From Candidatus Omnitrophota bacterium (GTDB taxonomy: Bacteria > Ratteibacteria > UBA8468 > MWAK01): a stretch of DNA of 15,176 bases. Position 1 is the stretch's first letter. Every line of letters starts with the position of its first letter. The notes under the pieces were generated by a model that did no database searches, was not told where the DNA came from, and worked only from the letters and a program-made list of their open reading frames with translations. Both the position numbers and the translations under genes were made by a program. Shown in pieces: positions 1-15,014 of this stretch. The DNA lies in NCBI GenBank assembly GCA_043797665.1, contig JAZDPL010000005.1, forward strand, positions 1-15,176. Reading direction: 5' to 3'.

Positions 1-48
1 AAATCAAGCCCCTACACCCCAAATGTAGGGGTTCAATTTATTGAACCC
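1..48. repeat. GTAG-type REP pair inside the open reading frame
   Basis: 1-16 AAATCAAGCCCCTACA is identical to 10748-10763. 25-48 = GTAG+GGGTTCAAT-TT-ATTGAACCC (9-bp stem). Confidence 0.85.
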
Positions 49-1542
49 GAAGGTAGGGTGAGAAACCTCCTGGCGTTATTTGGTGGTCTGCTCTTTGTCT
101 GCCACCCCATCCAGACCCAGGCGGTAACCTATATCATTCAACGCGCCGCCTCCTTTGCCACCTTCTGGTATCTCCTTACTCTTTGCCTCTACGCCAAAGC
201 CAGACTCTCTTCAGCCTCACGACCATATTACTTATGTTCTATCATCTCAGCCAGCTTAGCGCTATTTACCAAGGAGACTGCGGTCACCCTGCCTTTTATA
301 CTTATAGTCTGGGAGATTTGCTTTTTCCGGAAATTCACCAAAAGAACCGCAAAATGGATTGTACCGTTCTTTCTACCGTTGCTGGCCACGTTAGTAATTA
401 TCCGGATAACCGATATGGATAAAGAATTATACGGTTCTGCCTTGATTTCCTCTAAAGACTATCTTTTGACCCAGTTTCGGGTTATCGTTACCTATCTCAG
501 ACTCCTTCTGATTCCGATAAATCAGAACCTTGACTACGACTACCCCATTGTTAGAAGCCTTTTTAACCTGCCTGTCTTTGCCAGTCTTATTCTGCTTTTG
601 AGCATTTTGGCAACCGGATTTATTCTTTTCCGCAAATACCGGCTCTTATCCTTTGGCGTCTTCTGGTTCTTCCTTACCCTGGCACCAGAATCCAGTATCA
701 TACCTATTAAAGACGTCATCTTTGAACACCGGCTCTACCTGCCTATGGTTGGCTACTGTATCTTTCTGCCCTCTCTCTGCTATTATTTCTTTCCGAGAAG
801 ATTTCTGCGTTTTCTTCCGGTACTTCTGATCGTAGTGGTTACCATCTATGGAATCAGTACCTATCATAGAAATAGTATCTGGAAAGACGAAATTGCCCTC
901 TGGAACGACACAGTGAGTAAGTCTCCTAACAAGGCCCGGCCGTATAATAATCGCGGAATTCTGTATCTTTCCAGGGGTAAATACGACCAGGCTCTCGCAG
1001 ATTTCAATAGAGCAGTCATGATTGCCCCAGATTGTGCAGATGCTTACCTTAATCGGGGAGAAATTTATCATGAGAAAGGAGATTATGACAAAGCGTTGGC
1101 CGATTTTACCCAGGTACTAAAGATCGCTCCAGGTTATGCAAAAGCTTTTTGTAACCGCGGGGTTCTATATGAAAACAGAGGAGAATATGAGAAGGCAATC
1201 ACTGAGTATACTCAGGCGATAAAACTCGACAGGAATTATGTTCAGGTTCACTTCAATCGGGGGAATGCGTATCTAAACAAAAAAGAATTTGATAAGGCTA
1301 TTGCTGATTACACCCGGGCAATAGCGCTTACCCCAACTAATGCGGCCGCCTATAATAACCGGGGCTTCGCATATTTTTTAAAGAATGATTACACCAGTGC
1401 CTGGCAAGACCTTACTCAGGCAAAGACCTTAGGATACCAAGTACCTCCGGAATTGTTCAAAATTCTAAATCAAAATGCAAAATACGGGTCCCTTTTCCAT
1501 AGGATTGGAAAGGGCAAACTGACTTATGGTTCAGGAAATTAA
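1..1542 (+). CDS. Multi-TM membrane protein with C-terminal TPRs (TMTC/DUF1736-like putative glycosyltransferase), 5'-truncated by the window edge
   Basis: Frame +1 is open from base 1 (KSSPYTPNVGVQFIEPEGRVRNLLALF...), so GTG 58 is probably not the true start. Motifs HPIQTQAVTYI, ALFTKETAV, NLDYDYP, FEHRLYLP and RNSIWKDEIALW are typical of bacterial TMTC-like proteins, followed by 5 TPRs. Confidence 0.85.
   Translation, partial: KSSPYTPNVGVQFIEPEGRVRNLLALFGGLLFVCHPIQTQAVTYIIQRAASFATFWYLLTLCLYAKARLSSASRPYYLCSIISASLALFTKETAVTLPFILIVWEICFFRKFTKRTAKWIVPFFLPLLATLVIIRITDMDKELYGSALISSKDYLLTQFRVIVTYLRLLLIPINQNLDYDYPIVRSLFNLPVFASLILLLSILATGFILFRKYRLLSFGVFWFFLTLAPESSIIPIKDVIFEHRLYLPMVGYCIFLPSLCYYFFPRRFLRFLPVLLIVVVTIYGISTYHRNSIWKDEIALWNDTVSKSPNKARPYNNRGILYLSRGKYDQALADFNRAVMIAPDCADAYLNRGEIYHEKGDYDKALADFTQVLKIAPGYAKAFCNRGVLYENRGEYEKAITEYTQAIKLDRNYVQVHFNRGNAYLNKKEFDKAIADYTRAIALTPTNAAAYNNRGFAYFLKNDYTSAWQDLTQAKTLGYQVPPELFKILNQNAKYGSLFHRIGKGKLTYGSGN
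934..1443 (+). repeat. Five tandem 34-aa TPR motifs (protein-level repeat)
   Basis: Repeats begin ARPYNNRG, ADAYLNRG, AKAFCNRG, VQVHFNRG, AAAYNNRG at 34-aa spacing. Confidence 0.9.
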
Positions 1543-3892
1543 AATTTTAGGGAAGAGCGGACCGGAACTGAATGAAATCAGCCGGCAATACCTTCTGGCT
1601 TTAAACCAGAAAGAGATGGAAACGGTCCAGGATTACTTTAGCCGGCTGGGTCGCAATCCAAAAGATATTGAACTGGAAACGATTGCCCAAACCTGGTCGG
1701 AACATTGTATCCATAAGACCTTCCGCGGAGTAATTGAATACGAAGAAGACGGGAAAAAAGAAATAATTGACAATCTATTAAAATCAACCATTATCCGCGA
1801 AACAAAAGAACTTAATAAAGATTATTGCCTTTCGGTATTTGAAGACAACGCCGGCATCGTAGAATTTACGGAAGGACTGGGCATCGCCTTCAAGGTGGAG
1901 ACCCATAACCATCCCTCGGCTCTGGAACCTTACGGCGGTGCGGAGACCGGAATCGGAGGAGTTATCCGGGACATCTTAGGCGTGGGTCTGGGTGCCAAAC
2001 CTATCCTCAATACCGACATCTTCTGTTTTGGTTCCCTTGACTACCCTTATGAAAAATTGCCCCCGGGGGTCCTCCATCCTCGCAGGGTTTACAAAGGTGT
2101 GGTAAGCGGTGTCCGGGACTACGGGAACCGGATGGGAATTCCTACCGCTAACGGTGCCATCCTTTTTGATGAGGGTTACCTTGCCAATCCGTTGGTCTAC
2201 TGCGGAACCTTAGGATTGATTCCAAAGAACAAAATCAAGAAAAGCGTAAAACCGGGTGATTTAATTCTGGTAATCGGCGGACGGACCGGCCGGGACGGAA
2301 TCCACGGCGCCACCTTCTCTTCCCTCAGCCTTAAAAAAGGGATATCCGCCAGTGTGGTTCAGATTGGCGCACCCATTACCGAAAAGAAGTTCTTAGACGT
2401 ACTCCTGGTGGCTCGTGACCGTAACCTCTTTCGGAGCATTACCGACTGCGGTGCGGGTGGTCTTTCTTCCGCGGTCGGCGAGTTGGGACAAAAGACCGGT
2501 GCGGACGTCTACCTGGACAAAGTACCGCTGAAATACGCCGGACTTGCTTGTTGGGAGACCTGGGTCTCGGAAGCCCAGGAACGTATGGTCCTGGTGGTAC
2601 CGCCGGGAAATAAAAAAACTATCGCAGACCTTTTTGCCTCCGAAGGGGTTGAGGCTACTTTTATCGGAAAGTTTACCGGAAACGGCCGTCTGAGATTATT
2701 TGATAAAAAGAAAAAGGTCGGTGACTTAGAAACCTCGTTTCTCCATAAAGGCATACCCAGAGTTTACTGGAAAGCGGTTTATCATACCTCGAAAGTATCT
2801 GAACCCGATTTGCCGAACAACGTCGATTACGAAGGTGTTCTGAAAGCCCTTTTAAGTCATTATAATATTGCCAGCAAAGAGAAGGTTATCCGGCAGTATG
2901 ACCACGAAGTACAGGGACAGACAGTCCTTAAGCCGTTTGCCGGTTTTGACGGCCCGTCCGATGCGGTGATTCTGAAACCGCTCCTCACCAAAGGGAACAC
3001 CGGAATTGTGGTTTCCAACGGTATCAACTTATACGGAGAGATTGACCCATACCTCTCGGCCGGCAACGCCGTTGATGAAGCCTTGCGGAATCTGGTTGCG
3101 GTTGGAGGCAATCCGGAAAGAGCCAGTCTTTTAGACAACTTCTGCTGGGGAGACGTTAAGGACCCGGAAATTCTGGGTTCTCTGGTCCGGGCATCCCGCG
3201 CCTGTTATGACATCGGTAAAGGGTTCGGAGTTCCCTTTATCTCCGGGAAGGACAGCCTGAATAATTACTTTGTGACCGAAGAAGGAGAACGGATGTCCAT
3301 CCCCCCGACCCTGCTTATCTCCGGTCTTTCGGTGATTGAAGATATCCGGTACGCGGTATCTATGGATTTGAAAGAAAGCGGGAACCTGATTTATCTCTTA
3401 GGTGTGACCGAGGGAAGCGAAACCGGCGGTTCCCACTATTTAAAAATATTGAAGAAAAATGGGGGGGAAGTCCCCAATATTGACGTAGAGTCAGCCAAAA
3501 AACGAATGATTACCCTGCACCGGGCAATGATTTCCGGTCTGGTCCTTTCCTGCCACGACCTTTCGGAAGGAGGACTTGGTGTTGCGGTTGCGGAGATGGC
3601 GTTCAGCGGACGGATAGGTATAGAGATAGATTTAAGGAAATCTGTTTATAATGATGGTAAAAGACGTTCCGACAGGGTCCTCTTCTCAGAATCTGCCAGC
3701 AGATTTCTGGTTGAGGTAACACCGGAAAACCAATCTGCTTTTGAAACACTATTTACCGGTCAGCCAATCAGCCTGATCGGCAAAACAATAAAAGAACCTC
3801 TCCTGAAAATCTCCGGTTTAGATGGCGAGAACATCCTTGCCGGTGATATTATTGCCCTGGGAGAAATCTGGCGGAATAGCCTACCGTGGTAA
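1526..3892 (+). CDS. purL: Phosphoribosylformylglycinamidine synthase subunit PurL (small-type, FGAM synthase II)
   Basis: Motifs QTWSEHCIHKTF, KVETHNHPSALEPYGGAETGIGGVIRD, GRDGIHGATFSS, DCGAGGLSSA, SEAQERM, QYDHEVQ, ISGKDSLNN, HDLSEGGL; 788 aa with no glutaminase domain. Confidence 0.97.
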   Translation: MVQEIKILGKSGPELNEISRQYLLALNQKEMETVQDYFSRLGRNPKDIELETIAQTWSEHCIHKTFRGVIEYEEDGKKEIIDNLLKSTIIRETKELNKDYCLSVFEDNAGIVEFTEGLGIAFKVETHNHPSALEPYGGAETGIGGVIRDILGVGLGAKPILNTDIFCFGSLDYPYEKLPPGVLHPRRVYKGVVSGVRDYGNRMGIPTANGAILFDEGYLANPLVYCGTLGLIPKNKIKKSVKPGDLILVIGGRTGRDGIHGATFSSLSLKKGISASVVQIGAPITEKKFLDVLLVARDRNLFRSITDCGAGGLSSAVGELGQKTGADVYLDKVPLKYAGLACWETWVSEAQERMVLVVPPGNKKTIADLFASEGVEATFIGKFTGNGRLRLFDKKKKVGDLETSFLHKGIPRVYWKAVYHTSKVSEPDLPNNVDYEGVLKALLSHYNIASKEKVIRQYDHEVQGQTVLKPFAGFDGPSDAVILKPLLTKGNTGIVVSNGINLYGEIDPYLSAGNAVDEALRNLVAVGGNPERASLLDNFCWGDVKDPEILGSLVRASRACYDIGKGFGVPFISGKDSLNNYFVTEEGERMSIPPTLLISGLSVIEDIRYAVSMDLKESGNLIYLLGVTEGSETGGSHYLKILKKNGGEVPNIDVESAKKRMITLHRAMISGLVLSCHDLSEGGLGVAVAEMAFSGRIGIEIDLRKSVYNDGKRRSDRVLFSESASRFLVEVTPENQSAFETLFTGQPISLIGKTIKEPLLKISGLDGENILAGDIIALGEIWRNSLPW

Positions 3893-4879
3893 CAGTTCGG
3901 GGAATCCTTTAGTGGTATGAAAAATCTGGCCGGGCATAATGATTAATGCTTCCACACCAGGTGTATCTTCCGCAAGTTTTATCCCCTTCTCCGGTCCTAA
4001 GACCGTAAACGCAGTAGACAAGCCATCTGCTAAGAGAGCGGTTGAAGCAATTACCGTCACACCCTCCGGATAATTTCCTTCCAGGGAGCCGGTCTTTGGA
4101 TTAAGAATATGGCTGTAACGCTTTCCTTTAATTTCAAAATAGCGCTGGTAATTACCGCTGGTAGAAACGCCCCGGTCCTTAATCAAAACAGCGCCGATAA
4201 CACCTTCTCCGCGTGGGTTCTGGATGCCAACCTTCCACTTGCCCTGATGGGGACCGGTTCCAAAGGCATACAGGTTTCCGCCTAAATTGACGATACCGGA
4301 CTTCACACCGTAAGATTTCAGAAGAAAAACCGCCTCGTCCACCGCGGCGCCTTTTCCGATACCGCCCAAATCTACGGCCATCCTTTTTTTGGTAAACCAC
4401 ACCGTTCCATCTTCTTCTATCTTAAGATTCTGATAACCAACCAGAGGAAGGAGAGGTTTCAAATCGGAAGATTTCCCTGATTTCTCGGCTTCTCTCCAGG
4501 CTGACATCAGCGGTGCCACGGTAATATCAAAGGCACCGTCTGAGATACGGGAAATCTCCTGGGATTTTTTCAAAAGAGACCGGGTCTCCGGGGAAGATTT
4601 TATTTTGCCTTTCCGGTTCAGACGGGAAATTTCGCTCTCCGGCCGATAGAAAGACCAGAGGCTTTCCAAATACCGCATCCGGCTAAAGACCGCGTTGGCG
4701 ATATTCTCAGGATTGGTCCCCGGTACCGGTATAAAGGTAAGGTCGCAGAAAGTTCCCATAACCAGACTGGAATAATGCACCTGCTGCTCTTCCCTGCTGC
4801 ACGAAACAAAAAGCAGACCAAAGAGAACCAGCAGGATGGGTTGCCAGGATATTTTTTTCCTTTTCTCCCGGTGTTTCAT
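3881..4879 (-). CDS. apbE: FAD:protein FMN transferase lipoprotein (ApbE family)
   Basis: Signal peptide with lipobox FVSC; motifs MGT, SEISRLN, GAFDITVAPL, DLGGIGKG, STSGNY, HILNPKTG, ADGLSTA. Overlaps the purL 3' end by 12 nt, convergently. Confidence 0.93.
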   Translation of the reverse strand: MKHREKRKKISWQPILLVLFGLLFVSCSREEQQVHYSSLVMGTFCDLTFIPVPGTNPENIANAVFSRMRYLESLWSFYRPESEISRLNRKGKIKSSPETRSLLKKSQEISRISDGAFDITVAPLMSAWREAEKSGKSSDLKPLLPLVGYQNLKIEEDGTVWFTKKRMAVDLGGIGKGAAVDEAVFLLKSYGVKSGIVNLGGNLYAFGTGPHQGKWKVGIQNPRGEGVIGAVLIKDRGVSTSGNYQRYFEIKGKRYSHILNPKTGSLEGNYPEGVTVIASTALLADGLSTAFTVLGPEKGIKLAEDTPGVEALIIMPGQIFHTTKGFPELLPR

Positions 4880-4916: not shown

Positions 4917-5020
4917 TGTCATTCCCGCAAGCCTGCCCCTGAATGCAGTAAACAGGGGTGTTTAGCGGGAATCGGTTAGCCCACAATATAGATTCCTGCT
5001 TACTATCCGCAGGAATGACA
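4917..5020. repeat. TGTC/CGTC-type REP doublet (ATTCCYGC..GCRGGAAT arms) with a nested hairpin
   Basis: Starts TGTCATTCCCGC and ends GCAGGAATGACA. Right arm 4991-5020 matches the reverse complement of 7362-7391 at 29/30. Nested CCCCTG..CAGGGG at 4936-4958. Confidence 0.9.
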
Positions 5021-5057: not shown

Positions 5058-5086
5058 TTGACATTCGGGAAAAATCAGGGTATAAT
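5058..5086 (+). promoter_or_regulatory. Consensus sigma70 promoter for the gntR-GRE operon
   Basis: TTGACA (5058-5063), 17-nt spacer, TATAAT (5081-5086): exact consensus. Confidence 0.9.
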
Positions 5087-5109
5087 AGTGGTAAAGTTAT
5101 ATTACCACT
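5087..5109. promoter_or_regulatory. Palindromic operator, likely the GntR/FadR binding site
   Basis: AGTGGTAA-N7-TTACCACT directly after the -10 box and over the expected TSS; TGGT...ACCA cores are typical of FadR-subfamily sites. Confidence 0.7.
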
Positions 5110-5122
5110 TTTTAGCCAGATT

Positions 5123-5875
5123 ATGGCCGAGAAAAGACTTCCCGGGTTGAAGCGGATGGAAAGGGTGACTTTTGCGGATAATATTGCCCGGGACCTTTTA
5201 CAGTATATCGTTTCCCATAATCTCCAATCCGGCAGCCGGCTCCCCTCCGAACGTAAATTAAGCGAAATTCTGGGGGTGAGCCGTTTACCCTTACGGGAAG
5301 CCTTTGCCCGTTTACGCGGAGTAGGTATTCTGGAATCCCGCCAGGGAAGCGGTACCCGCATAAGTAAGGTAATACCTCACGCCATCTTTCGGACCATCTC
5401 CCCCTTTTTCTGCCAGCAACACCGCTTAGGTATTCAGGAAATGCTGGAAGCCAGAAAGACGATTGAAATACCAATCGTAAAATTAGCGGCGTTTAACAGG
5501 ACCCGGGAGGAAATTTTCCGCCTGAAAGCAGACCTCAAAAAGATGGAAAAAACGTTAGACAAAAACCGGGAATCGTTTATCGAAGCGGATATGGATTTCC
5601 ATTACACCCTGGCGCTGGCAAGTCGGAACTGCATCCTGCGCACGTTTATGGAACTGATGCATGCCCTGATGATTGAAGTCCAGCACTTATTTCCGGATAA
5701 AACAACCAATCGCCGACAGTCCCTCAATTTCCATCGCAAGATGCTGGAGGCCGTGGAGAAAAAAGACCGGTCAAAAGCAGCAAAAGAGATGGAACAACAT
5801 TTAAATAATATTGGAGATAGAATTAAAGGGGCAACCCCTAAAGAGAAAATAGGAGGTAGGGATGCTGCTACATAA
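5123..5875 (+). CDS. GntR family, FadR subfamily transcriptional regulator (wHTH + FCD domain)
   Basis: GSRLPSERKLSEILGVSRLPLREA...GSGT wHTH; FCD motifs EARKTIE, ADMDFHYTLALASRN, FHRKMLEA, MEQHL. Start moved to ATG 5123 because the 4958 start lies in a repeat upstream of the promoter. Confidence 0.92.
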   Translation: MAEKRLPGLKRMERVTFADNIARDLLQYIVSHNLQSGSRLPSERKLSEILGVSRLPLREAFARLRGVGILESRQGSGTRISKVIPHAIFRTISPFFCQQHRLGIQEMLEARKTIEIPIVKLAAFNRTREEIFRLKADLKKMEKTLDKNRESFIEADMDFHYTLALASRNCILRTFMELMHALMIEVQHLFPDKTTNRRQSLNFHRKMLEAVEKKDRSKAAKEMEQHLNNIGDRIKGATPKEKIGGRDAAT

Positions 5876-7337
5876 TAATCTGTTTATTGACCATAAGTGG
5901 ATTGAGTCAAAAGGAGGTAAGAAAGGTAAGGTTTTGAACCCGGCTACCAACGAAGTGCTGGGTGAAATTACCCTGGCAGACGCTCCGGATGTAACCCTGG
6001 CCGTGGAGACCGCCAGCCAGGCGTTTGAAAAAGGGCTCTGGCACAAAAAACCCCTGCTGGAACGGAGCGCTATCCTGAACCGGGTCGGTGACCTCATCAC
6101 AAAGAATGCGGAAGAATTATCACAGATTGAGACCGCGGATGTGGGAAAGCCGATTACGGAAAGCAGGAATATTGACATTCCTTCCTCGGCGGATACGTTT
6201 CATTACTTTGCCAACCTGATGTCTGACATCGGCGGCGAGGTTATCCCCTCCGCTATCCCGGACATTATGGACTATACCGTCCACGAACCCTTGGGTGTGG
6301 TGGCGGCAATCACTCCCTGGAACTTCCCCTTCTTAATTGCCAGCCGTAAATTAGCCAGCGCCCTGGCTGCCGGTAACAGCGTGGTAATAAAACCATCCAG
6401 CCTGGCTCCGTTCAGTACCCTCCGGTTAATGGATCTGCTGACAGATGCCGGGGTGCCGGAAGGGGTAGTCAATGCCATTACCGGAAGCGGTGGAATCATC
6501 GGAGAAGCCCTGACCACTCTGCCTCAGGTTCAGGATATAAGTTTTACCGGTTCCACGGAAGTAGGTAAAACCCTGATGAGTTGTTGTTCTGAAAATTTAA
6601 AGGGTGTAGGGTTGGAATTGGGTGGTAAAAGCCCGGCTCTGGTTCTGCCGGACGCTAATCTTCAGGAGACGCTGGACGGCATTCTTTTCGGGATATTCCT
6701 CAACCAGGGCGAGTGCTGCTGTGCGGCAACCAGAATTCTGGTTCATAAAGATATTTATGACCGTTTTGTACCGGAACTTGTCTCCGCGACAAAAGCGCTC
6801 CGGGTTGGCTTACCCCGGGAAGAAAAGACCCAGATGGGCCCGCTCGTCAGTCAGGAACATCTGGAAACAGTCCTGAACTATATTGAGGATGGGAAAAAAG
6901 CCGGAGCCAGACTTCTCTGCGGAGGAAACCGGTTAAAAAAAGGGGTACTGAATAAAGGAAATTTTGTTTCCCCGGCCATTTTTGCAGAGGTAAGCCGGGA
7001 TATGCGCATCTTCCAGGAAGAGATATTCGGACCGGTGGCAGTGGTTACAAAATGTTCCGGCATTGAAGAGATGGTTGCCCTGGCGAATGACAGCATCTAC
7101 GGCTTGGCTGCCAGCATCTGGACCAATAACCTCAAAGAAGGACACCGAATCGCCAGCCGTCTGAAATCAGGAACGGTCTGGATGAATTTACATAATTTCG
7201 TTATGCCGATGGGTCCGTACGGCGGATATAAGATGAGCGGATTGGGCCGGGAGTTGGGACGGGAAGGTGTTCTGGCTCTAATGCAGACTAAAAACGTGAT
7301 GGTTAACTTAATGGAAAAACCATTTAAATGGTACTAA
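5862..7337 (+). CDS. NAD(P)+-dependent aldehyde dehydrogenase (non-acylating type)
   Basis: PWNFP, KPS, FTGSTEVG, LELGGKSP, NQGECCCA, EEIFGPV, YGL, PYGGYKMSGLGRE; SD AGGAGGT at 5851-5857; overlaps the regulator by 14 nt. Confidence 0.95.
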   Translation: MLLHNNLFIDHKWIESKGGKKGKVLNPATNEVLGEITLADAPDVTLAVETASQAFEKGLWHKKPLLERSAILNRVGDLITKNAEELSQIETADVGKPITESRNIDIPSSADTFHYFANLMSDIGGEVIPSAIPDIMDYTVHEPLGVVAAITPWNFPFLIASRKLASALAAGNSVVIKPSSLAPFSTLRLMDLLTDAGVPEGVVNAITGSGGIIGEALTTLPQVQDISFTGSTEVGKTLMSCCSENLKGVGLELGGKSPALVLPDANLQETLDGILFGIFLNQGECCCAATRILVHKDIYDRFVPELVSATKALRVGLPREEKTQMGPLVSQEHLETVLNYIEDGKKAGARLLCGGNRLKKGVLNKGNFVSPAIFAEVSRDMRIFQEEIFGPVAVVTKCSGIEEMVALANDSIYGLAASIWTNNLKEGHRIASRLKSGTVWMNLHNFVMPMGPYGGYKMSGLGRELGREGVLALMQTKNVMVNLMEKPFKWY

Positions 7338-7361
7338 TATAACAAACGACATAAATAATTC

Positions 7362-7453
7362 TGTCATTCCTGCGGATAGTTAGCAGGAATCCCTGCTTAC
7401 TGCATGCAGGGACGACGTCTATGGATTCCCGCTTAAATCATGCGGGAATGACA
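7362..7453. repeat. TGTC/CGTC-type REP doublet with a central nested hairpin
   Basis: TGTCATTCCTGC..GCAGGAATC / CCCTGC..GCAGGG / GATTCCCGC..GCGGGAATGACA; same family as 4917-5020, in inverted orientation. Confidence 0.9.
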
Positions 7454-7463
7454 AAGGACTCGT

Positions 7464-8459
7464 ATGAAAAAGTTTAAGGTGGCGGTAAGTGATTATGTTT
7501 TTCCTGATTTGAAGCCGGAGGAAGAGATACTTTCACCGTTAGGGGTGGAGATTCTTTCCGGGCAAAGCCGGAGCGTGGAAGAGTTAATAGCATTGACAAA
7601 AGAGGCAGATGCTCTTCTGAACTGTTACTTTAAGCCGGTCGGTGAAGAGGTTTTCCGGGCAAGTCCGAGATTAAAGACGGTGGTACGCTACGGCATCGGC
7701 GTGGATACGATTGACATTCCCGCAGCCACCCGGTACGGAATTATGGTTGCCAACATTCCGGACTACTGCCTGGAAGAAGTATCCGACCATACCATCAGCC
7801 TTATTTTTGCCTTGTCCCGCAAGATTGTCCTATCCGATAAAAAGGTCAAAGAAGGCGATTACAGCCTCAGTTATCTGAAACCAATCTTCAAACTGCAGGG
7901 AAAGACCATCGGGTTCCTGGGGTTTGGCAGAATTGCACAAATGGTGGCAAAAAAATTGGCAAACTTCGGTTTGAAATTTATCTTTTATGACCCCTATCTG
8001 AAAGAAGACGCGGTCGAAAAGACGCAAAAGGTTTCCCTCCAGGAAATCTTAAGTTCCAGCGATTATCTCCTGGTCCATACACCGGAGACAAAAGAAACTG
8101 CACATCTCTTGAACCGGGAGACTCTTTCGCTGATGAAACCGACCGCCTGCCTTATCAATACCGCCCGGGGCGGAATTATTGATACTCCGGCGCTCATTGA
8201 AATGTTACAATCCGGTAAATTAGCCGGTGCAGGGTTAGACGTGATGGAAGGCATACCTCCGATTAACCCGGACCACCTTCTCTGTAAAATGGATAATGTA
8301 ATACTGACGCCCCACTCCGCCTGGTACTCTGAAGATGCGTTAAGAGAACTCCAGACGAAGGCAGCCCAGGAAGTTGCCCGGGTCCTTTCCGGGGAAAAAC
8401 CCAGGTCGTTACTAAATCCGGAAGTACTTAAAACAGAAAACTTTAAATTGTCACTCTGA
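7464..8459 (+). CDS. D-isomer-specific 2-hydroxyacid dehydrogenase family protein (CtBP/SerA-like, no ACT domain)
   Basis: RYGIGVDTID, NIPDYCLEEVSDH, GFGRIA, YDPY, HTPET, INTARGG, LDV, TPHSAWYS. Confidence 0.92.
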   Translation: MKKFKVAVSDYVFPDLKPEEEILSPLGVEILSGQSRSVEELIALTKEADALLNCYFKPVGEEVFRASPRLKTVVRYGIGVDTIDIPAATRYGIMVANIPDYCLEEVSDHTISLIFALSRKIVLSDKKVKEGDYSLSYLKPIFKLQGKTIGFLGFGRIAQMVAKKLANFGLKFIFYDPYLKEDAVEKTQKVSLQEILSSSDYLLVHTPETKETAHLLNRETLSLMKPTACLINTARGGIIDTPALIEMLQSGKLAGAGLDVMEGIPPINPDHLLCKMDNVILTPHSAWYSEDALRELQTKAAQEVARVLSGEKPRSLLNPEVLKTENFKLSL

Positions 8460-8536
8460 ACGAAGTGAAGAGTCTTAGATTCTTCGATCGCTTCCACCCC
8501 TTACCAAGGGTAAGGGGACCCGTCCTCAGAATGACA
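8449..8536. repeat. Second TGTC-type REP doublet (CTCAGAATGACA family) with a nested perfect hairpin
   Basis: TGTCACTCTGAACGAAGTGAAGAGTC...AGATTCTTCG...CTCAGAATGACA; nested CCCCTTACC-AAG-GGTAAGGGG at 8497-8517; related to 12964-13033. Confidence 0.85.
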
Positions 8537-8544
8537 GGAGAACA

Positions 8545-10689
8545 ATGAATAAAATTGCAAAGTTTTTGATGGAAAAAGGCGAGTGGTTGGGCGCCGGCTT
8601 CCTTGAAGAACCAGAGGCTTCACCGATGATAAAGACCAGCCGGGCAATCAGACGCCAGTTAGAAAATGTTCCCCTGCCTCCCTATGAAGGTACCCTCCTC
8701 TACCCTTCCGGATTGAACACTCTATGGCATACAAAAAATCAAGTGTTTTCTTTTCATTATTCTTTTTCCTTATGCTTTGACCGGATTCACGCCACCAAAA
8801 TTATCGAGAACGCAACCGGTTCAGAAAAAAAGCGGCAATGGCAGGAGATAACAAACATCTTTACCAAGCATAATCTTTTTGACCCTACCGGTACTGTTGG
8901 TTCCAAATTCTGTGTCGGTGGTAATGGGTATACCCACAGTATACCCAATTACGGCCGGGTTCTGAAAGAAGGTCTGGTTTCTTACCGGGAAAGAGTTATC
9001 CGATACAAAGATGAAGCCAGCCTGACCAGAAATAAACAAAAAATGGAATTCTATCAAGGACTGGAAGATGTCCTGGCTGGAATTAAATCTTTACACCAAC
9101 GCATCATTACCACCATCAAAAAAAGCCCATCTGACGGTGCAAATAAAAAGTTACTTTTGAAAGCATACCGGTCGGTACCTTTCTTACCCGCAAGTAATTT
9201 TTATGAGGCGTTGGCTGCCACCAATTTCATCTTCTATTTAGATGGCTGTGATAGTTTAGGCCGGATTGACTATGAATTAGGTGCATTTTATCTCAGCGAC
9301 CTGAAGTCCGGGAAAATCACCCACCAAAAAGCAATAGAACTGATGCGGACGTTCTGGCAGAACTTTGACAATAACAACGGCTGGAACGTTGCCATCGGCG
9401 GCAGTAAGACGGACGGAACACCTGCCTATAACGAACTCACCCTGGTCTGTTTAGAAGCAGCCCGGAAGATGCGACGTCCCAGTTTGGCGCTGCGAATCAG
9501 AAAAGACATGCCGGACCAATACTTTGAATCCGCACTGGATACGATTAAAACCGGTTGCGGTCTCCCGGCTCTCTACAATGAAGAACTTTATCTTGATGCG
9601 CTGTGGAATAACCATCTCAACATTCAATACCGGGACATCTCTGACTATGCCTTTGGCGGCTGTACCGAGACAATGATTCACGGAAAATCCAACGTGGGTT
9701 CTCTGGATGGCGGTATTAACTTGTTGGGAATTCTGGAAGAAACATTAACAAAATTTTCTTTAAACGCGTCTGATTTCCGGGAAGTTATGGAAGTCTATAA
9801 AAAAGACTTAGGCAATGCCATTAGCGACATGACCAGCCAGATTAATCGGGACCAGGAAAGAAAAGCAAAATACCGCCCCCAGCCGATGCGGACTCTGTTC
9901 ATTGACGATTGCCTTGACGCCGGGAAGGAATACAATTCCGGTGGAGCCAGATATAACTGGAGTGTGGTCAACGTAGGTGGTCTGGCTAACGTGGCGGATT
10001 CGTTGATTGTAATAAATGACCTCGTCTATGACCGGAAGAAGGTTTCCGCTAAAAATTACCGGCAGGCACTCCGGAAGAACTTCGCAGGTTTTCCGGAATT
10101 ATTAAAAGAAATTAAGCGCTGTCCCAAATATGGGAATGACGAAGAAGAGGTTGACGCGATTGCCAAAGAGGTGGCAGATTTTGTCTTTGCTGAGTTCCGG
10201 CGTTATGCCTGCTGGCGGGGTGGACACTTCCTGCCCGGTTGCCTGATGTTCGTTACTTATGCCTCCGAAGGCACCAAGGTTATGGCAACACCGGATGGCA
10301 GAAAAGCCAGGGAACCGATTGCCGATTCTATCGGTCCTTACCAGGGCCGGGACAAAAACGGTCCAACCGCAATGCTCAAATCGGTAGCAAAACTAAATCA
10401 ACCTGCTGGAATCGGTACCCTTATCCTGAATATGCGGTTTTCCCGTTCTTTTTTTGACGACGCTAACAGCCGTAAAGCAATAAAAGACATGATTCGTACC
10501 TACTTTGGGTTGGGTGGAATGCAGATACAAATTACGGTGGTGGACCAGAAGATATTGAAGGATGCCATCCTCCATCCGGAAAAGTACGAGGACCTGATTA
10601 TCCGGATTGGTGGTTATTCCGAATATTTTAACCGCCTCACTCCGGAGTTAAAAGAGACCGTTTTAGCCCGTACCGAGTATAACCCATAA
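8545..10689 (+). CDS. Glycyl radical enzyme (PFL-like superfamily), uncharacterised type; GRE1
   Basis: SLGRID, Cys loop FGGCTE (Cys373), GGARYN, PKYGND, ATPDGRKAREPIADS, Gly finger RIGGYS (Gly690); SD AGGAG at 8536-8540. Confidence 0.92.
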   Translation: MNKIAKFLMEKGEWLGAGFLEEPEASPMIKTSRAIRRQLENVPLPPYEGTLLYPSGLNTLWHTKNQVFSFHYSFSLCFDRIHATKIIENATGSEKKRQWQEITNIFTKHNLFDPTGTVGSKFCVGGNGYTHSIPNYGRVLKEGLVSYRERVIRYKDEASLTRNKQKMEFYQGLEDVLAGIKSLHQRIITTIKKSPSDGANKKLLLKAYRSVPFLPASNFYEALAATNFIFYLDGCDSLGRIDYELGAFYLSDLKSGKITHQKAIELMRTFWQNFDNNNGWNVAIGGSKTDGTPAYNELTLVCLEAARKMRRPSLALRIRKDMPDQYFESALDTIKTGCGLPALYNEELYLDALWNNHLNIQYRDISDYAFGGCTETMIHGKSNVGSLDGGINLLGILEETLTKFSLNASDFREVMEVYKKDLGNAISDMTSQINRDQERKAKYRPQPMRTLFIDDCLDAGKEYNSGGARYNWSVVNVGGLANVADSLIVINDLVYDRKKVSAKNYRQALRKNFAGFPELLKEIKRCPKYGNDEEEVDAIAKEVADFVFAEFRRYACWRGGHFLPGCLMFVTYASEGTKVMATPDGRKAREPIADSIGPYQGRDKNGPTAMLKSVAKLNQPAGIGTLILNMRFSRSFFDDANSRKAIKDMIRTYFGLGGMQIQITVVDQKILKDAILHPEKYEDLIIRIGGYSEYFNRLTPELKETVLARTEYNP

Positions 10690-10712
10690 TGAAACAAACG
10701 TAAGAATGTAAC

Positions 10713-10762
10713 GTAGGGGCGCCATTCATGGCGCCCGCGGGCTTGATAAATCAAGCCCCTAC
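10713..10762. repeat. GTAG-type REP inverted doublet
   Basis: GTAG+GGGCGCCAT-TC-ATGGCGCCC, a GC spacer, then inverted GTAG+GGGCTTGAT-TT-ATCAAGCCC. Confidence 0.9.
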
Positions 10763-10777
10763 AGTTATTGGGAATAC

Positions 10778-12961
10778 ATGGACAGATTAGTGGAAAGGGT
10801 AAAGGAGCGATATAATTACCGGACCGGCGAGTCTTTTGCCGGTTCGTACATTTCGCTGCTGAAATGGAGAGGTCTGGCGGAAACGCACAGTTCTGATTCT
10901 TTTTGCTATAAAAAGGCTTTGGCGTTTAAGACGGTCTGCCATGACATTGAAAAAAAAGTCTTTCCGGAAGAACTGATTGTCGGATGGCTGCCGGACATTG
11001 ATGCGAAAAAATATCAAAAGGTACTGTCAGAATATCAGAAAAAATTTGGCGTTTTTGCGGAAGAGATAAAGGGAGGCGGTCAGGCTGGTCACTTCGCACC
11101 CAATTACCGCCGGCTTCTAAAGACTGGCCTGAAGACAGTTCATGAAGAAGTCTGTGCGAAATTGGCCTCTCTTGACCCGGCAATACCGGAGAATATCAGC
11201 AAGATTGAGTTTCTGAATGCGGCCAAAATAACTTTAGAAGAGTTCAAAACTTTTTGTCAGGCTTACGCAGAATTAACCAAAAATATGGCAAGAAAATCTG
11301 ACATAGATTCCCGCTTTAAACATGCGGGAATGACAGAACAAAGGCGGAAGAAGGAACTGTTAGAGATTTCCCGTATCTGTGCTAAAGTTCCCTGGGAACC
11401 AGCGGAATCATTCCAGGAGGCGCTCCAGGCAATCTTCTTTATTTACCTGGGTCTTCTCTTTGATATCCCCACGCTTACCTCTTTTGGAAGATTAGACCGA
11501 TATTTAGAACCATATCTGAAAAAAGACTTAGCTAAAGGTAAAATAGACTGGGAATTTGCGCTCCGGCTGATGCGTAATTTCTGCGCTAAAGTGAATGAAT
11601 TTTCAATTCTTCCGCAATCGGTTATGGTTGGCGGCAGAACCGCAGACGGCAAACCATATTTCTCTTCCGCAACTAAATTGGTCATGGAAGCGATTGACCG
11701 AAACCGCCTCCTCAACCCGGCGTTAGGTGTGGCTTGTTGTAAAAATATGGCCGAATACCTGTGGGAAAAATCAGTTGCGATGCTTGCGGACGGTTTTGGA
11801 CACCCGGCGCTCTTCGGAGACGAAACGATTACCGGAGGATTGATTGATGTTGGGGTTTCAATAGAGGATGCCTGCGAGTTCGTCCATTGCACCTGTACGG
11901 AAATAACCATACCGGGCCGGGGTTACATCTGGGTTACCGCTGACTATATCAACTTTCCGAAAGTTTTTGAGTATATCTGGTACCAGGGTAAGGACAGGAA
12001 CAAGAAAGAAGATGGAGTAGATACCGGCGGGTTATCCAAATTGAACAGTTTCAACAAGATGGTTTCGGCAGTAAAGAAACAATTGGCAAACCAGGTCTAC
12101 CGGAATACGGTTACCCAGAACCGTCTGGTCTGGCGCCGGATGCAGTTTGACCCTAATCCTTTCGCTTCCTGTCTGGTTGATGACTGCATCAAAAGAGAAG
12201 AGGATATTACCCGGGGTGGCGCAATCTATAACTTTCTCTACCCCCAACTGGTCGGACTGGCTAACGTCACGGATGGTCTGTTAGCGATTAAAAATTTGGT
12301 TTATGAAAATAAACGTTTATCCCTTTCTGAACTAAAGACTGTTTTGGAAAAGAACTTTATCGGGTTTGAACCGTTACGCCAGGGAATCATCAATAAAATG
12401 CCCAAGTACGGCACAGACGACGATGAAGCAGATAAATTAGCGAGTGAATTGGCAGGATTCTATTGTTCAGAAGTACTTAAGTACCGTACTCCGCTTTCCC
12501 GGTACTACCCGGGTTTTCTGGTCTGGCGTCTCCACCTGCCTTTTGGTCAGGACTGTATGGCGACACCGGACGGCCGCCGGGAAGGTACACCCCTGGCTGA
12601 CAGCCTGGCGGCGATGCAGGGGCAGGCAAAGAAAGGTATCACCGCCATCCTCAACAGCGCAATAAAACTGAACCTCTCCCGGGCAATTGGTGCCGCGGTG
12701 GTCAACCTGCACGTTCAGCCTTCATTACTGGAAACTCCAGAGGACCGCAAAAAGTTCGCCGACTTGCTTAAAGCCCATTTTCAAAACGATGGTTTTGAGG
12801 TCCAGGTAACCGTGGTCAGTGCTGAAGAACTGGAAAAGGCGATAACAGAACCCGAGAAGTACCGGGACCTCATCGTTCGGGTAGGCGGCTACAACGACTA
12901 CTTTACCCGCCTGGATCCGGAACTCCAGAGAACTATTATTGAACGGGCGCGGAGAGCGTAG
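10778..12961 (+). CDS. Glycyl radical enzyme (PFL-like superfamily), uncharacterised type; GRE2
   Basis: ELIVG, GHFAPNY, SFGRLD, Cys loop HCTCTE (Cys371/Cys373), [21 protein letters not shown], Gly finger RVGGYN (Gly704). Confidence 0.92.
11303..11335. repeat. Single REP arm in frame within GRE2 (encodes [11 protein letters not shown])
   Basis: ATAGATTCCCGCTTTAAACATGCGGGAATGACA matches intergenic 7421-7453 at 30/33. Confidence 0.9.
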
Positions 12962-12963
12962 TA

Positions 12964-13033
12964 TATCATCCTGAGGGGATAGCCGAAGGATCTCAGCAAA
13001 AAACGAGATTCTTCGCTAACGCTCAGAATGACA
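12964..13033. repeat. TGTC-type REP doublet (CTCAGAATGACA family)
   Basis: TATCATCCTGAG..GAAGGATCTC..GAGATTCTTCGCTAACGCTCAGAATGACA; shares AGATTCTTCG and CTCAGAATGACA with 8449-8536. Confidence 0.85.
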
Positions 13034-13041
13034 TCCAAATA

Positions 13042-13944
13042 ATGAAGGCTTTAATATTCAATATTCAGCGGTTCTGCATCCACGATGGACCGGGTATCCG
13101 CACGGTGATATTTTTCAAGGGGTGTAGACACCGGTGCGGGTGGTGTCACAATCCGGAGTCAAAAAAGCCTTATTCCCAAATACTCTTCTACCCGGACAAA
13201 TGTTTAGCCTGCCGAATCTGCGTTGCGGTCTGTCCGAACCAGGCGCTAACCTTGGATGATTCACAAAAAAAAGTGGTTTACCGCCCGGAACGATGCAAGA
13301 AATGTTTTGCCTGTGCTGAAGCTTGTCCGGCAGAAGCCATTGTCCGTTGCGGTAAGGAAATGACCGTTGAAGAGATATTTAACGAGGCGATAAAGGACAA
13401 GGCTTTTTACGAAACCTCCGGCGGCGGGGTAACCGCCTCCGGCGGTGAACCGCTTCTCCAGGCAGGATTTGTGGCTAGACTCTTCACTAAACTTCAAAAA
13501 TCGTCCATTCCTACCGCAGTGGAGACCGCGGGTGGAATTGACTGGCGATATTTTGCCAAAGTCTTACCCGTTACCGACCTTTTCCTTTTTGACCTGAAAT
13601 CCGGTGACGCCAGGCGTCTGAAAACCGCTACCAATGCTGAATTCCAGATGATAATTTCCAACTTAAAAAAACTCCTGTCCACCGGCAAGCCGGTTATCAT
13701 CCGCATTCCGGTCGTTCCCGGGTTCAACAGTACGCCCAAAGAATTGGAAAAGATAGCCGGAATCCTGCACAAATTACCCGGGAATTTTTCCGTTGAACCG
13801 CTCAAATATCACACTCTGGCAATCAACAAGTATTGGAGTTTGGGAGAAAACCCACCAAGAAAACAGTTCACCCCGGAAAAGATAGACAAGGCGTTTCAGA
13901 CCACCCAAGAGTTCTTTCGTAAAGCCAGCTTTAAAGTACTCTAA
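13042..13944 (+). CDS. Glycyl radical enzyme activating enzyme (radical SAM) with 2x[4Fe-4S] ferredoxin-like insert
   Basis: [28 protein letters not shown] (CxxxCxxC), [12 protein letters not shown] and [45 protein letters not shown]. Confidence 0.95.
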
Positions 13945-14003: not shown

Positions 14004-15014
14004 ATGAAGGAAGCGGGGTTTTATCAAAAAATAGCAGGAAACAGGGTACAATGTACCCTTTGTCCGCACCACTGCGTAATCAGTGACGGGAAAAAAGGAA
14101 AGTGCGGCGTACGGAAGAACCAAGAAGGGATTCTTTATTCCCTGGTTTACGAAAAAGCCTGTGCCTGTAACATCGACCCGATTGAAAAGAAACCTTTCTT
14201 CCACTTTTTCCCGGGTTCCACATCCCTTTCCGTATCAACGGTCGGTTGTAACCTCTCCTGCCTCTTCTGCCAGAACAGTGACATCTCCCAGGAGGTAAAG
14301 GAATCCGGTGAGGTATACGGTTTCAGCCTGCCGACTTCAGAGATTGTCCGGCAGGCGAAAACCCATCACTGTCAGTCAATATCCTATACCTATACCGAAC
14401 CCACGGTTTTTTTTGAATACGCGTTTGATACTGCGGTCTTAGCCAAAAAAGAAGGGGTGTATAATAACTTTGTTACCAACGGTTATACGGAAGCAGAACC
14501 GATTAAGGCGATTGCGCCGTACCTTGACGCCGCCAACGTAGATTTAAAAAGTTTCCGGGAGGAATATTACCATAAATTATGCGGAGGGAAACTGAAACCG
14601 GTACTGGATACCCTGATTCTGATGAAGAGTTCGGGCATCTGGCTGGAGGTTACCACTCTGGTCCTGCCGGACCAGAACGACAGCGACGAAGAACTTAAGG
14701 ATATGGCGCGTTTTATCAAAGAAAATTTAGGCGCAGAGACTCCCTGGCACATCAGCCGGTTCTTTCCGCGCTACCGGACAGGGAACCTTCCTCCGACACC
14801 GCCGGAAACCTTAATCCGGGCCCGGGAAATCGGATTGGAATCCGGTTTAAAGTTCGTCTACTCCGGCAATGTGCCTGGTGACTCAGGTGAAAACACCTAC
14901 TGCCCGGGATGCGGAAAATTAGTCATCGGACGTTACGGCTTCACCATCACCGAAAAACACCTCAAAGATAACGCCTGCCTTTCTTGTGGTCAATCCTTAT
15001 CCGGTATATTCTGA
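14004..15014 (+). CDS. amrS: AmmeMemoRadiSam system radical SAM enzyme
   Basis: N-terminal VQCTLCPHHC..GKCGVRKN, IDPIEKKPFFHFFPG, GCNLSCLFCQNSDISQ, SYTYTEP, DAANVDLK, PWHISRFFP, C-terminal TYCPGCG..CLSCG. Confidence 0.88.
   Translation: MKEAGFYQKIAGNRVQCTLCPHHCVISDGKKGKCGVRKNQEGILYSLVYEKACACNIDPIEKKPFFHFFPGSTSLSVSTVGCNLSCLFCQNSDISQEVKESGEVYGFSLPTSEIVRQAKTHHCQSISYTYTEPTVFFEYAFDTAVLAKKEGVYNNFVTNGYTEAEPIKAIAPYLDAANVDLKSFREEYYHKLCGGKLKPVLDTLILMKSSGIWLEVTTLVLPDQNDSDEELKDMARFIKENLGAETPWHISRFFPRYRTGNLPPTPPETLIRAREIGLESGLKFVYSGNVPGDSGENTYCPGCGKLVIGRYGFTITEKHLKDNACLSCGQSLSGIF

Follow-up and report, generated by a model that had tools for sequence, protein, structure and literature searches.

The locus

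Within the first 15,176 nt of contig JAZDPL010000005.1 from a Candidatus Omnitrophota bacterium (assembly GCA_043797665.1), hereafter called the window, lies a predicted operon of six intact plus-strand genes. In order, they code for a FadR-subfamily regulator, an aldehyde dehydrogenase (ALDH), a D-2-hydroxyacid dehydrogenase (HADH), two glycyl radical enzymes (GRE1 and GRE2) and a GRE activating enzyme (activase, AE). The genome comprises 2.69 Mb at 86% completeness, to which all statements below on genes not found in it refer, and its GTDB phylum consists of a single class with 65 genomes. The original prediction, made from the letters of the window, had described six co-oriented genes behind one promoter/operator, and this arrangement stood: the reading frames are intact, the predicted promoter is the sole 12/12 match among 25 sigma-70 sites (17.3 +/- 4.0 in shuffled sequences), and an operator-like inverted repeat follows it (Table 1). 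Even when up to two mismatches in the arms were tolerated, the genome yielded no second copy of this repeat. A half-site of the type TGGT(A/C)A directly 3' of the -10 box also occurs in L044, L162 and L192 (L and G numbers label compared loci and genomes), where the full palindrome is not conserved. The intergenic distances are, in operon order, -14, 126, 85, 88 and 80 nt.

Table 1. Features in and around the operon, in positions of the window
Feature	Position	Strand	Details
REP-like palindrome	4937..5020		
Sigma-70-type promoter (predicted)	5058..5086	+	12/12 consensus
Operator-like inverted repeat	5087..5109	.	8-bp arms, 7-nt spacer, spanning predicted start site
FadR-subfamily regulator (GntR + FCD)	5123..5875	+	R111, D156, H160, S200, H204, H226, R233
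Non-acylating NAD(P) aldehyde dehydrogenase (ALDH)	5862..7337	+	NQGECCC, H444-N445, C-terminal WY
Palindromic repeat cluster in ALDH-HADH gap	7359..7453	.	REP-like
D-2-hydroxyacid dehydrogenase (HADH), CtBP/PGDH-like	7464..8459	+	intact NTARG, DVME, TPHSAW motifs
REP-like palindrome	8460..8537		
GRE1, compact clade A (GGCTE[T/L]M)	8545..10689	+	H131, C373, E375, Gly loop RIGGYSE
Palindromic repeat in GRE1-GRE2 gap	10713..10762	.	REP-like
GRE2, compact clade B ([S/C]TCTEI)	10778..12961	+	His at GD H164 position, C373, E375, RVGGYND
33-nt palindromic repeat, in-frame within GRE2	11303..11335	.	11 extra residues from codon 176
REP-like palindrome	12962..13033		
GRE activating enzyme, ferredoxin-like insert	13042..13944	+	CX3CX2C at 28; Fe-S motifs at 54, 85

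Two compact GREs outside the characterised families

GRE1 (714 aa) and GRE2 (727 aa) are 33% identical to each other, and no other GRE was found in the genome. Both score above the cut-offs of PF02901 and PF01228, which makes them members of the PFL-like superfamily, and both are complete, as originally described, retaining a Gly loop and a Cys loop (GGCTET in GRE1, HCTCTEIT in GRE2). C373 and E375 are invariant across 44 clade-A and 9 clade-B rows of the alignment and correspond to the CxE motif of GRE 1,2-eliminases and isomerases as defined in a June 2026 review (PMC13450708; this and all other papers are cited here for parts of their text). The best matches of both proteins in sequence and fold are the C-O 1,2-eliminases glycerol dehydratase (GD; 1r8w) and propanediol dehydratase (PD; 5i2a/5i2g, 9rco). 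The GRE1 model (pLDDT 89.8) is nearest to PD and GD with TM 0.85-0.87 at 26% identity; the GRE2 model is weaker (pLDDT 70.7, TM 0.70 to the same nearest folds).

Identity to six references (GD, a PD-like protein, HypD, CutC, YbiW and PflD) amounts to 26-35%, the HypD and CutC stand-ins being labelled via NCBIfam and the PD-like one picked by length and similarity only. Both GREs fall far under every cut-off of the NCBIfam GRE models. For HypD, CutC, HpsG, HpfG, PflD, IAD, HPAD and PFL, the best equivalog scores were 287 (GRE1) and 366 (GRE2) against cut-offs of 994-1150, with the CutC model giving 256 and 330 (cut-off 1050); the GD/PD model TIGR01774 gave 341 and 433 against 678.2. In the case of PFL, TIGR01255 yielded 93 and 89 against 994.2, and the adjacent Cys-Cys pair is replaced by GCTE and CTCTE. 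In a FastTree phylogeny of 145 GREs, built without IslA, HpsG, BSS and decarboxylases, clade A is the sister of B/B' (support 1.0), and both lie separate from the six references. On scores, identities and tree we rejected an assignment to any characterised GRE, in agreement with the originally claimed divergence of the pair; judged by sequence, GRE1 and GRE2 resemble GRE 1,2-eliminases, yet match none of the named enzymes tested.

According to the alignment, on which all pocket statements rest, only the equivalents of H164, C433, E435 and G763 are kept from the GD site. CxE and GD H164 make up the catalytic set of C-O eliminases, the His protonating the leaving group in GD (PMC13450708). Two pocket loops are shorter in GRE1 and GRE2 than in GD. 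The GD residues H281, S282, Y339, D447 and Y640, whose identities were checked in GD and which we take to form its substrate pocket, are not kept in either protein. Clade A has the acidic residues D233/D236 near the pocket. The anchor residues of the C-S lyases are likewise not seen in the aligned columns: Leu occupies the GD Y640 column, presumably the equivalent of R678 (IslA lies outside the alignment), and His the H164 column. In IslA/IseG/HpsG this sulfonate anchor is the Arg/Gln/Arg set R189, Q193 and R678 (PMC13450708).

Clade A is large: the best 120 of 1317 matches to GRE1 share 47-57% identity with it, most of them having a length of about 715 aa, and the closest among these 120 is P0002 from 'Candidatus Omnitrophica bacterium'. 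Pattern matches in GTDB genomes were confirmed for 266 of 284, and 80 were retrieved. The hosts are mostly uncultured Poribacteria, Latescibacterota, Anaerolineae, PVC and Armatimonadota, and the proteins are annotated as pyruvate formate-lyase or hypothetical protein. Clade B is rare, with eight relatives of GRE2 at 58-64% identity and the next at 36%, and it is nested in a wider group with an [S/C]TCxE loop, termed B' here. A third uncharacterised clade, C (PIGC[I/V]ELT loop, RVAGYSQ), accompanies A and B in L136 (928-3219), L137 (1302-3638), L004, L006 and L057. Decaying paralogues occur as well, namely a clade-A gene with an internal TAG stop (L047:986-3121) and a clade-C gene cut to 251 aa (L005:10353-11105); a clade-B gene (L104:1313-3571) has a possible internal duplication.

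Activase, regulator and dehydrogenases

With 316.7 bits in TIGR02494 (cut-off 174.35), the activase belongs to the radical-SAM activases, and it is the only one above cut-off in the genome, which bears out the single enzyme with ferredoxin insert noted at the outset. One activase likely serves both GREs, since it is the sole one found and the R[I/V]GGY loops of GRE1 and GRE2 are near-identical. Activase specificity tracks the Gly-loop 7-mer, and the known cases of cross-activation mainly concern GREs that closely resemble each other (PMC13450708). A tree built from 29 activases pairs the enzyme found with clade A in L044 with the one found with B' in L162 (0.99), and unites in one clade (0.999) activases that, within the window's phylum, go with A+B, with B alone or with A+C. 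A separate activase accompanies clade C, which has an RVAG loop, in L136 and L137.

The mechanical start of the regulator reading frame at 4958 crosses a repeat and the promoter; homologues favour a start near 5123. The protein keeps the equivalents of R102, D146, H150, H195 and R224 of the DgoR sugar-acid pocket (residues from PMC7674646) together with the three-His metal site, and differs in T191, which is Ser, and S221, which is Ile. Such a pocket points to a carboxylate effector without naming which, in keeping with the carboxylate or sugar-acid sensing suggested originally for this regulator. A metal/carboxylate pocket of the DgoR type is also found in regulators that sense other carboxylates.

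Hallmarks of the ALDH orthologous group are NQGECCC, H444-N445 and a C-terminal WY. Its top family scores are those of betaine aldehyde dehydrogenases, at 505 bits under the cut-off of 668.6, and the phylum's 64 other genomes yielded no orthologue above 38% identity. Together with their counterparts in related loci, the window's ALDH, HADH and regulator each fall into a recognisable orthologous set. Related HADHs adjoin genes for fumarylacetoacetate hydrolase (FAH) family proteins, an isopropylmalate synthase (IPMS)-like enzyme, a pyruvate dehydrogenase E1-like protein or 2-keto-3-deoxygluconate (KDG) kinase/aldolase.

Diagnostic partners of known GRE loci are missing, as had been stated. The bacterial microcompartment (BMC) shell domain PF00936, which would indicate a glycyl radical microcompartment locus, has 0 matches genome-wide. 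Small subunits of the X-succinate synthase or HPAD kind were not seen beside the GREs, where the gaps of 80-126 nt are filled with repeats and reading frames of at least 60 aa were covered.

An FAH-family enzyme on another contig

The genome contains a single gene for an FAH-family C-C hydrolase/decarboxylase, located on a contig other than that of the operon (C27:11053-11856); a palindromic repeat lies just 5' of its start. The protein is orthologous to GRE-adjacent FAHs, with 53-69% identity. Clade A or B is present in 8 of the 65 genomes of the phylum, and FAH adjoins a GRE in six of these eight (three genera), once with an extra FAH copy at that place. The motif NYxxHxxE, whose His/Glu pair marks the C-C-cleaving members (PMC6336799), is kept in 13/13 FAH proteins checked, so that a KDP-dehydratase type is disfavoured. 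Members with this pair cleave 2,4-dioxo acids or oxaloacetate to give pyruvate (PMC6336799; bioRxiv 10.1101/2023.06.26.546597). Top PDB matches include 8gsr (L-2,4-diketo-3-deoxyrhamnonate hydrolase), 4dbf and 8sky; the sister entries of the last two, 4DBH and 8SKY, represent the oxaloacetate decarboxylases Cg1458 and YisK, respectively (for YisK, bioRxiv 10.1101/2023.06.26.546597).

Conservation of the gene module

We compared 104 loci, comprising the window, L001-L083 and 20 genome regions, from which L102, L105, L106 and L111 had been removed as repeats and in which the near-identical pairs L001/L103 and L002/L101 were kept. At least three of the regulator, ALDH, HADH and FAH genes stand beside an A, B or B' GRE in the window, L044, L136, L137 and L162. 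The gene neighbourhood is thereby conserved in another phylum, where four loci of the class Phycisphaerae carry regulator, ALDH and FAH beside GREs and three of them also HADH; L136, L137 and L162 come from samples of 301-401 genomes in the class of L044. In L044 the order is FadR-HADH-FAH-ALDH-AE-A (36, 51, 52, 42 and 45% identity to window proteins), and L162 has the genes of L044 with B' instead of A (FadR-HADH-FAH-ALDH-B'-AE). L136 is arranged as FadR-C-AE-HADH-ALDH-A-AE-B-FAH, an order that L137 shares without HADH, a 42% identical HADH being encoded elsewhere in its genome. The B proteins of both carry the HCTCTE loop of the window.

A and B/B' are adjacent in 12 of the 104 loci, which come from several phyla; in 10 of these the pair is full-length, and in 2 it is truncated by a contig end. 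Across loci, the GRE set is interchangeable: A alone, B' alone, A+B or C+A+B. This speaks against a fixed two-enzyme sequence; the two GREs rather look like parallel entry enzymes. In G130 the set is split between two short contigs, one with FadR-ALDH and the other with HADH-AE-B-SDR-epimerase-FAH (SDR, short-chain dehydrogenase/reductase). With all four genes in this one genome, a strict replacement of ALDH and HADH by SDR and epimerase is ruled out. Specific names for these SDR and epimerase-like neighbours were rejected, only generic family matches being obtained.

Other arrangements were met among the compared regions. L165 (3845-13060) runs IclR, iron-type alcohol dehydrogenase (Fe-ADH), B', activase, A, PfkB kinase and class II aldolase. 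In L192 (2089-5055), orthologous FadR and HADH genes precede an IPMS/homocitrate-synthase-like gene near phosphoenolpyruvate carboxykinase. G152 (L159, L160, L191, L209) has a separate HADH-FAH-ALDH operon and 13 PFL-like matches elsewhere. A GRE-free cluster recurring in the class of L044 (L196-L205) combines Gfo/Idh/MocA oxidoreductases, a related HADH, a class III aminotransferase, an ArgE-like deacylase and Zn-ADH, sometimes with FAH or KDG kinase/aldolase.

A possible radical route for sugar acids

From the observed genes, motifs, clades and co-occurrences we infer a catabolic direction, a substrate class and a set of reactions. It is possible, if somewhat short of an even chance, that the operon encodes an undescribed anaerobic route in which short sugar acids undergo radical 3,4-dehydration, C4 tetronates fitting best; for the tetronate version alone we see rather little likelihood. 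The operon would be anaerobic, catabolic and FadR-repressed, and its single activase would put the glycyl radical on both GREs. GRE-A and GRE-B would act as parallel 1,2-eliminases on related substrates, probably stereoisomers, to give one common product. Parallel entry is suggested because interchangeable GRE sets stand before a constant downstream set and because single paralogues are broken. Acting on a short sugar acid with a 3,4-diol, the GRE would take H from C4 and expel the OH from C3, yielding a 2-hydroxy-4-oxo acid. The C4 acids D-erythronate and L-threonate, which are both 2R, would be converted to (R)-malate 4-semialdehyde; ALDH would then form D-malate, the D-specific HADH oxaloacetate, and FAH pyruvate and CO2. 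The ALDH would have its place in the operon because dehydration of a C4 acid yields an aldehyde. From C5 or C6 acids a 4-ketone would arise and be turned by HADH and FAH into pyruvate and a hydroxy acid. Read backwards, the 2-oxo group would come from HADH, and the GRE would generate the 3-deoxy-4-oxo unit out of a 3,4-diol, where radical chemistry would be required; a sugar acid is the probable substrate class on this reasoning. The boldest version, in which a battery of compact GREs with one tolerant activase dehydrates the 3,4-diols of stereoisomeric tetronates or longer aldonates and leads kinase-free to pyruvate, is doubtful.

The originally proposed radical pathway is thus retained as far as uncharacterised GREs in a conserved module are concerned; as drawn from the window it was incomplete, FAH on C27 being a further regular member. 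Of the refuting conditions named at the outset, neither of the two that sequence can address was borne out: the GREs group with no characterised enzyme, and the gene combination is conserved. Known tetronate routes proceed through oxidation, kinase and decarboxylase steps (PMC12994016), and the DUF1537 tetronate-kinase domain was not found in the genome. In the part of the openly accessible literature that was covered, we found no GRE that acts on sugar acids or is paired with FAH, many GRE papers being published in subscription journals. The portions of PMC13450708 used here contain no sugar-acid GRE class and no mention of aldonate, threonate, fumarylacetoacetate or heterodimer.

With GD and PD, the window GREs share the Gly loop, the CxE Cys loop, the His at the H164 position, a ferredoxin-insert activase and an aldehyde-handling enzyme nearby. 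They differ in identity (about 29-32%), in being 60-130 residues shorter with loop deletions, in the absence of a BMC shell and a CoA-acylating ALDH, in having two GREs that would share one activase, and in their partners, non-acylating ALDH, HADH and FAH. In the anhydroglycolysis of E. coli, the two GRE isomerases YbiW and PflD convert two stereoisomers into one product (PMC13450708). Two GREs, the CxE motif and a sugar context (kinase and aldolase in L165) are common to both cases, but identity is 26-31%, the clades are separate, the two E. coli enzymes have separate activases, and phosphotransferase system and FSA genes are absent from the window. The Route III sugar-acid pathway likewise forms pyruvate with a His/Glu FAH and has dehydrogenases and a regulator of the FadR type (PMC6336799); in place of the clustered GRE, ALDH and HADH seen here, it relies on metal dehydratases together with an SDR 4-dehydrogenase, with no radical enzyme in the parts covering it. 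The window contains no SDR or conventional dehydratase, and the SDRs of related loci match generic families only. A tail from an aldehyde via D-malate to pyruvate and CO2 is found in the carnitine route of Acinetobacter, which starts with an oxygenase, passes through 3-hydroxy-4-oxobutanoate and employs a beta-decarboxylating dehydrogenase and other enzyme families (PMC11353897).

Points against the proposal and alternative readings

Several observations weigh against radical 3,4-dehydration of sugar acids. The aligned active-site positions of the GREs have no conserved Arg or Lys, and the carboxylate-binding position of HypD, which we take to be T645, is occupied by Phe/Trp. As far as its Arg sites can be equated from motif positions, which is our assumption, the ALDH has one of the two Arg residues of malic/succinic semialdehyde dehydrogenases (R162, 5/6), the second site being L280. 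FAH is near-universal in the phylum (57/65 genomes) and therefore also has a role without GREs; as no operator copy was found upstream of the C27 gene, it may be a housekeeping enzyme. Only 5 of the 104 loci carry at least three of FadR, ALDH, HADH and FAH, most clade-A genes stand without these partners, and an activase lies near clade A in only 16 of 85 loci within the available flanking DNA. A close HADH was not found in 301 genomes of the phylum of G067 (0 matches, E 1e-80) or in five genomes with these GREs (best 35-36%). Other contexts exist: L165 joins B' and A with PfkB kinase, class II aldolase and Fe-ADH, and in the genome of L192, which has FadR-HADH, a compact GRE was not found. 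Finally, no transporter or substrate-supply gene lies inside the operon, and by our own estimate the proposed route gives less ATP than the kinase-based tetronate routes.

The pocket without a conserved basic residue and the nearest folds, PD and GD, would also suit GREs that act on neutral substrates such as tetritols or other polyols, or anhydro- or O-methyl sugars from glycan breakdown, in the manner of GD/PD or YbiW/PflD. The aldehyde or ketone would then, depending on the host, be oxidised by ALDH, reduced by Fe-ADH, or phosphorylated and cleaved, for which the Fe-ADH genes beside GREs in L139 and L165, the kinase and class II aldolase of L165, and glucuronoyl-esterase-like and glycosidase neighbours speak. 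We regard this as a minority possibility, as it does not by itself account for the recurrent HADH and FAH and the carboxylate-type FadR pocket. Somewhat less probable is that the GREs replace an aldonate 2,3-dehydratase, the 2-keto-3-deoxy acids being oxidised at C4 by an SDR and cleaved by FAH as in Route III, with HADH and ALDH processing lactate/glycolate or aldehyde halves. Clade-B loci with FAH, SDR and an NAD-epimerase-like gene (L002, L047, L101, L103, L156) do resemble Route III clusters (PMC6336799), and a fucose-isomerase-like gene comes next in L001/L002. On the other side, nothing closely similar to the SDR or the epimerase was found in the window's genome (best 35% and 29%), and neither could be matched specifically to an enzyme known to act on sugar acids. 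The 2,3-dehydration is moreover a carboxylate-activated step performed by non-radical enzymes.

The adjacency of A and B/B' in those 12 loci would also be expected if the two GREs performed two successive eliminations on one substrate, or formed a heterodimer. This is made unlikely by L044 and L162, where the same downstream set goes with a single GRE (A and B', respectively), and by the breakage of single paralogues through the TAG stop in L047 and the truncation in L005. Even less can be said for C-N eliminases acting on an amino or ammonium substrate with CutC/HplG-like chemistry: the ALDH does score best as betaine aldehyde dehydrogenase, below cut-off, and D233/D236 lie near the clade-A pocket, but the CutC model stays far from its threshold and no amine-processing gene is a regular neighbour. 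That unrelated catabolic genes were assembled by chance appears very improbable. The many clade-A genes without partners, and an ALDH lacking orthologues above 38% identity in the rest of the phylum, would fit chance, but orthologous regulator, ALDH, HADH and GRE clades occur together in four loci of another phylum.

Repeats and neighbouring genes

The gaps between operon genes are occupied by palindromic repeats. REP-like palindromes (REP, repetitive extragenic palindromic) of at least three families are present in the region (Table 1), with about 127, 129 and 14 pattern matches genome-wide. The 33-nt repeat inside GRE2 has 41 genome copies within 4 substitutions; the 11 residues it adds are missing from 7/7 full-length homologues and are modelled as a low-confidence inter-helix loop. 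By a crude count, 12 of the 127 pattern matches of its family lie inside long reading frames, a situation reminiscent of the coding palindromic elements of Rickettsia. Upstream of the operon (1-4879) are ordinary genes outside it, for a TPR membrane protein, PurL and a divergent ApbE flavin transferase. An AmmeMemoRadiSam radical SAM gene (14004-15014) starts 59 nt 3' of the activase and is probably unrelated; L035 and L044 also have a relative of it less than 10 kb from a clade-A gene.

Significance

While the GRE superfamily is known, what is new here are unstudied GRE branches in a conserved pathway context with ALDH, HADH and FAH. Whole GRE clades have no function assigned to them, and the specificity of activases has hardly been studied (PMC13450708). 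The locus makes both problems testable, with two GREs of 33% identity beside one activase, and three oxygen-tolerant partner enzymes and a regulator let the substrate be deduced backwards. If true, a radical sugar-acid pathway would be a new GRE reaction type and would give a first function to a clade pair that is spread across many uncultured phyla.

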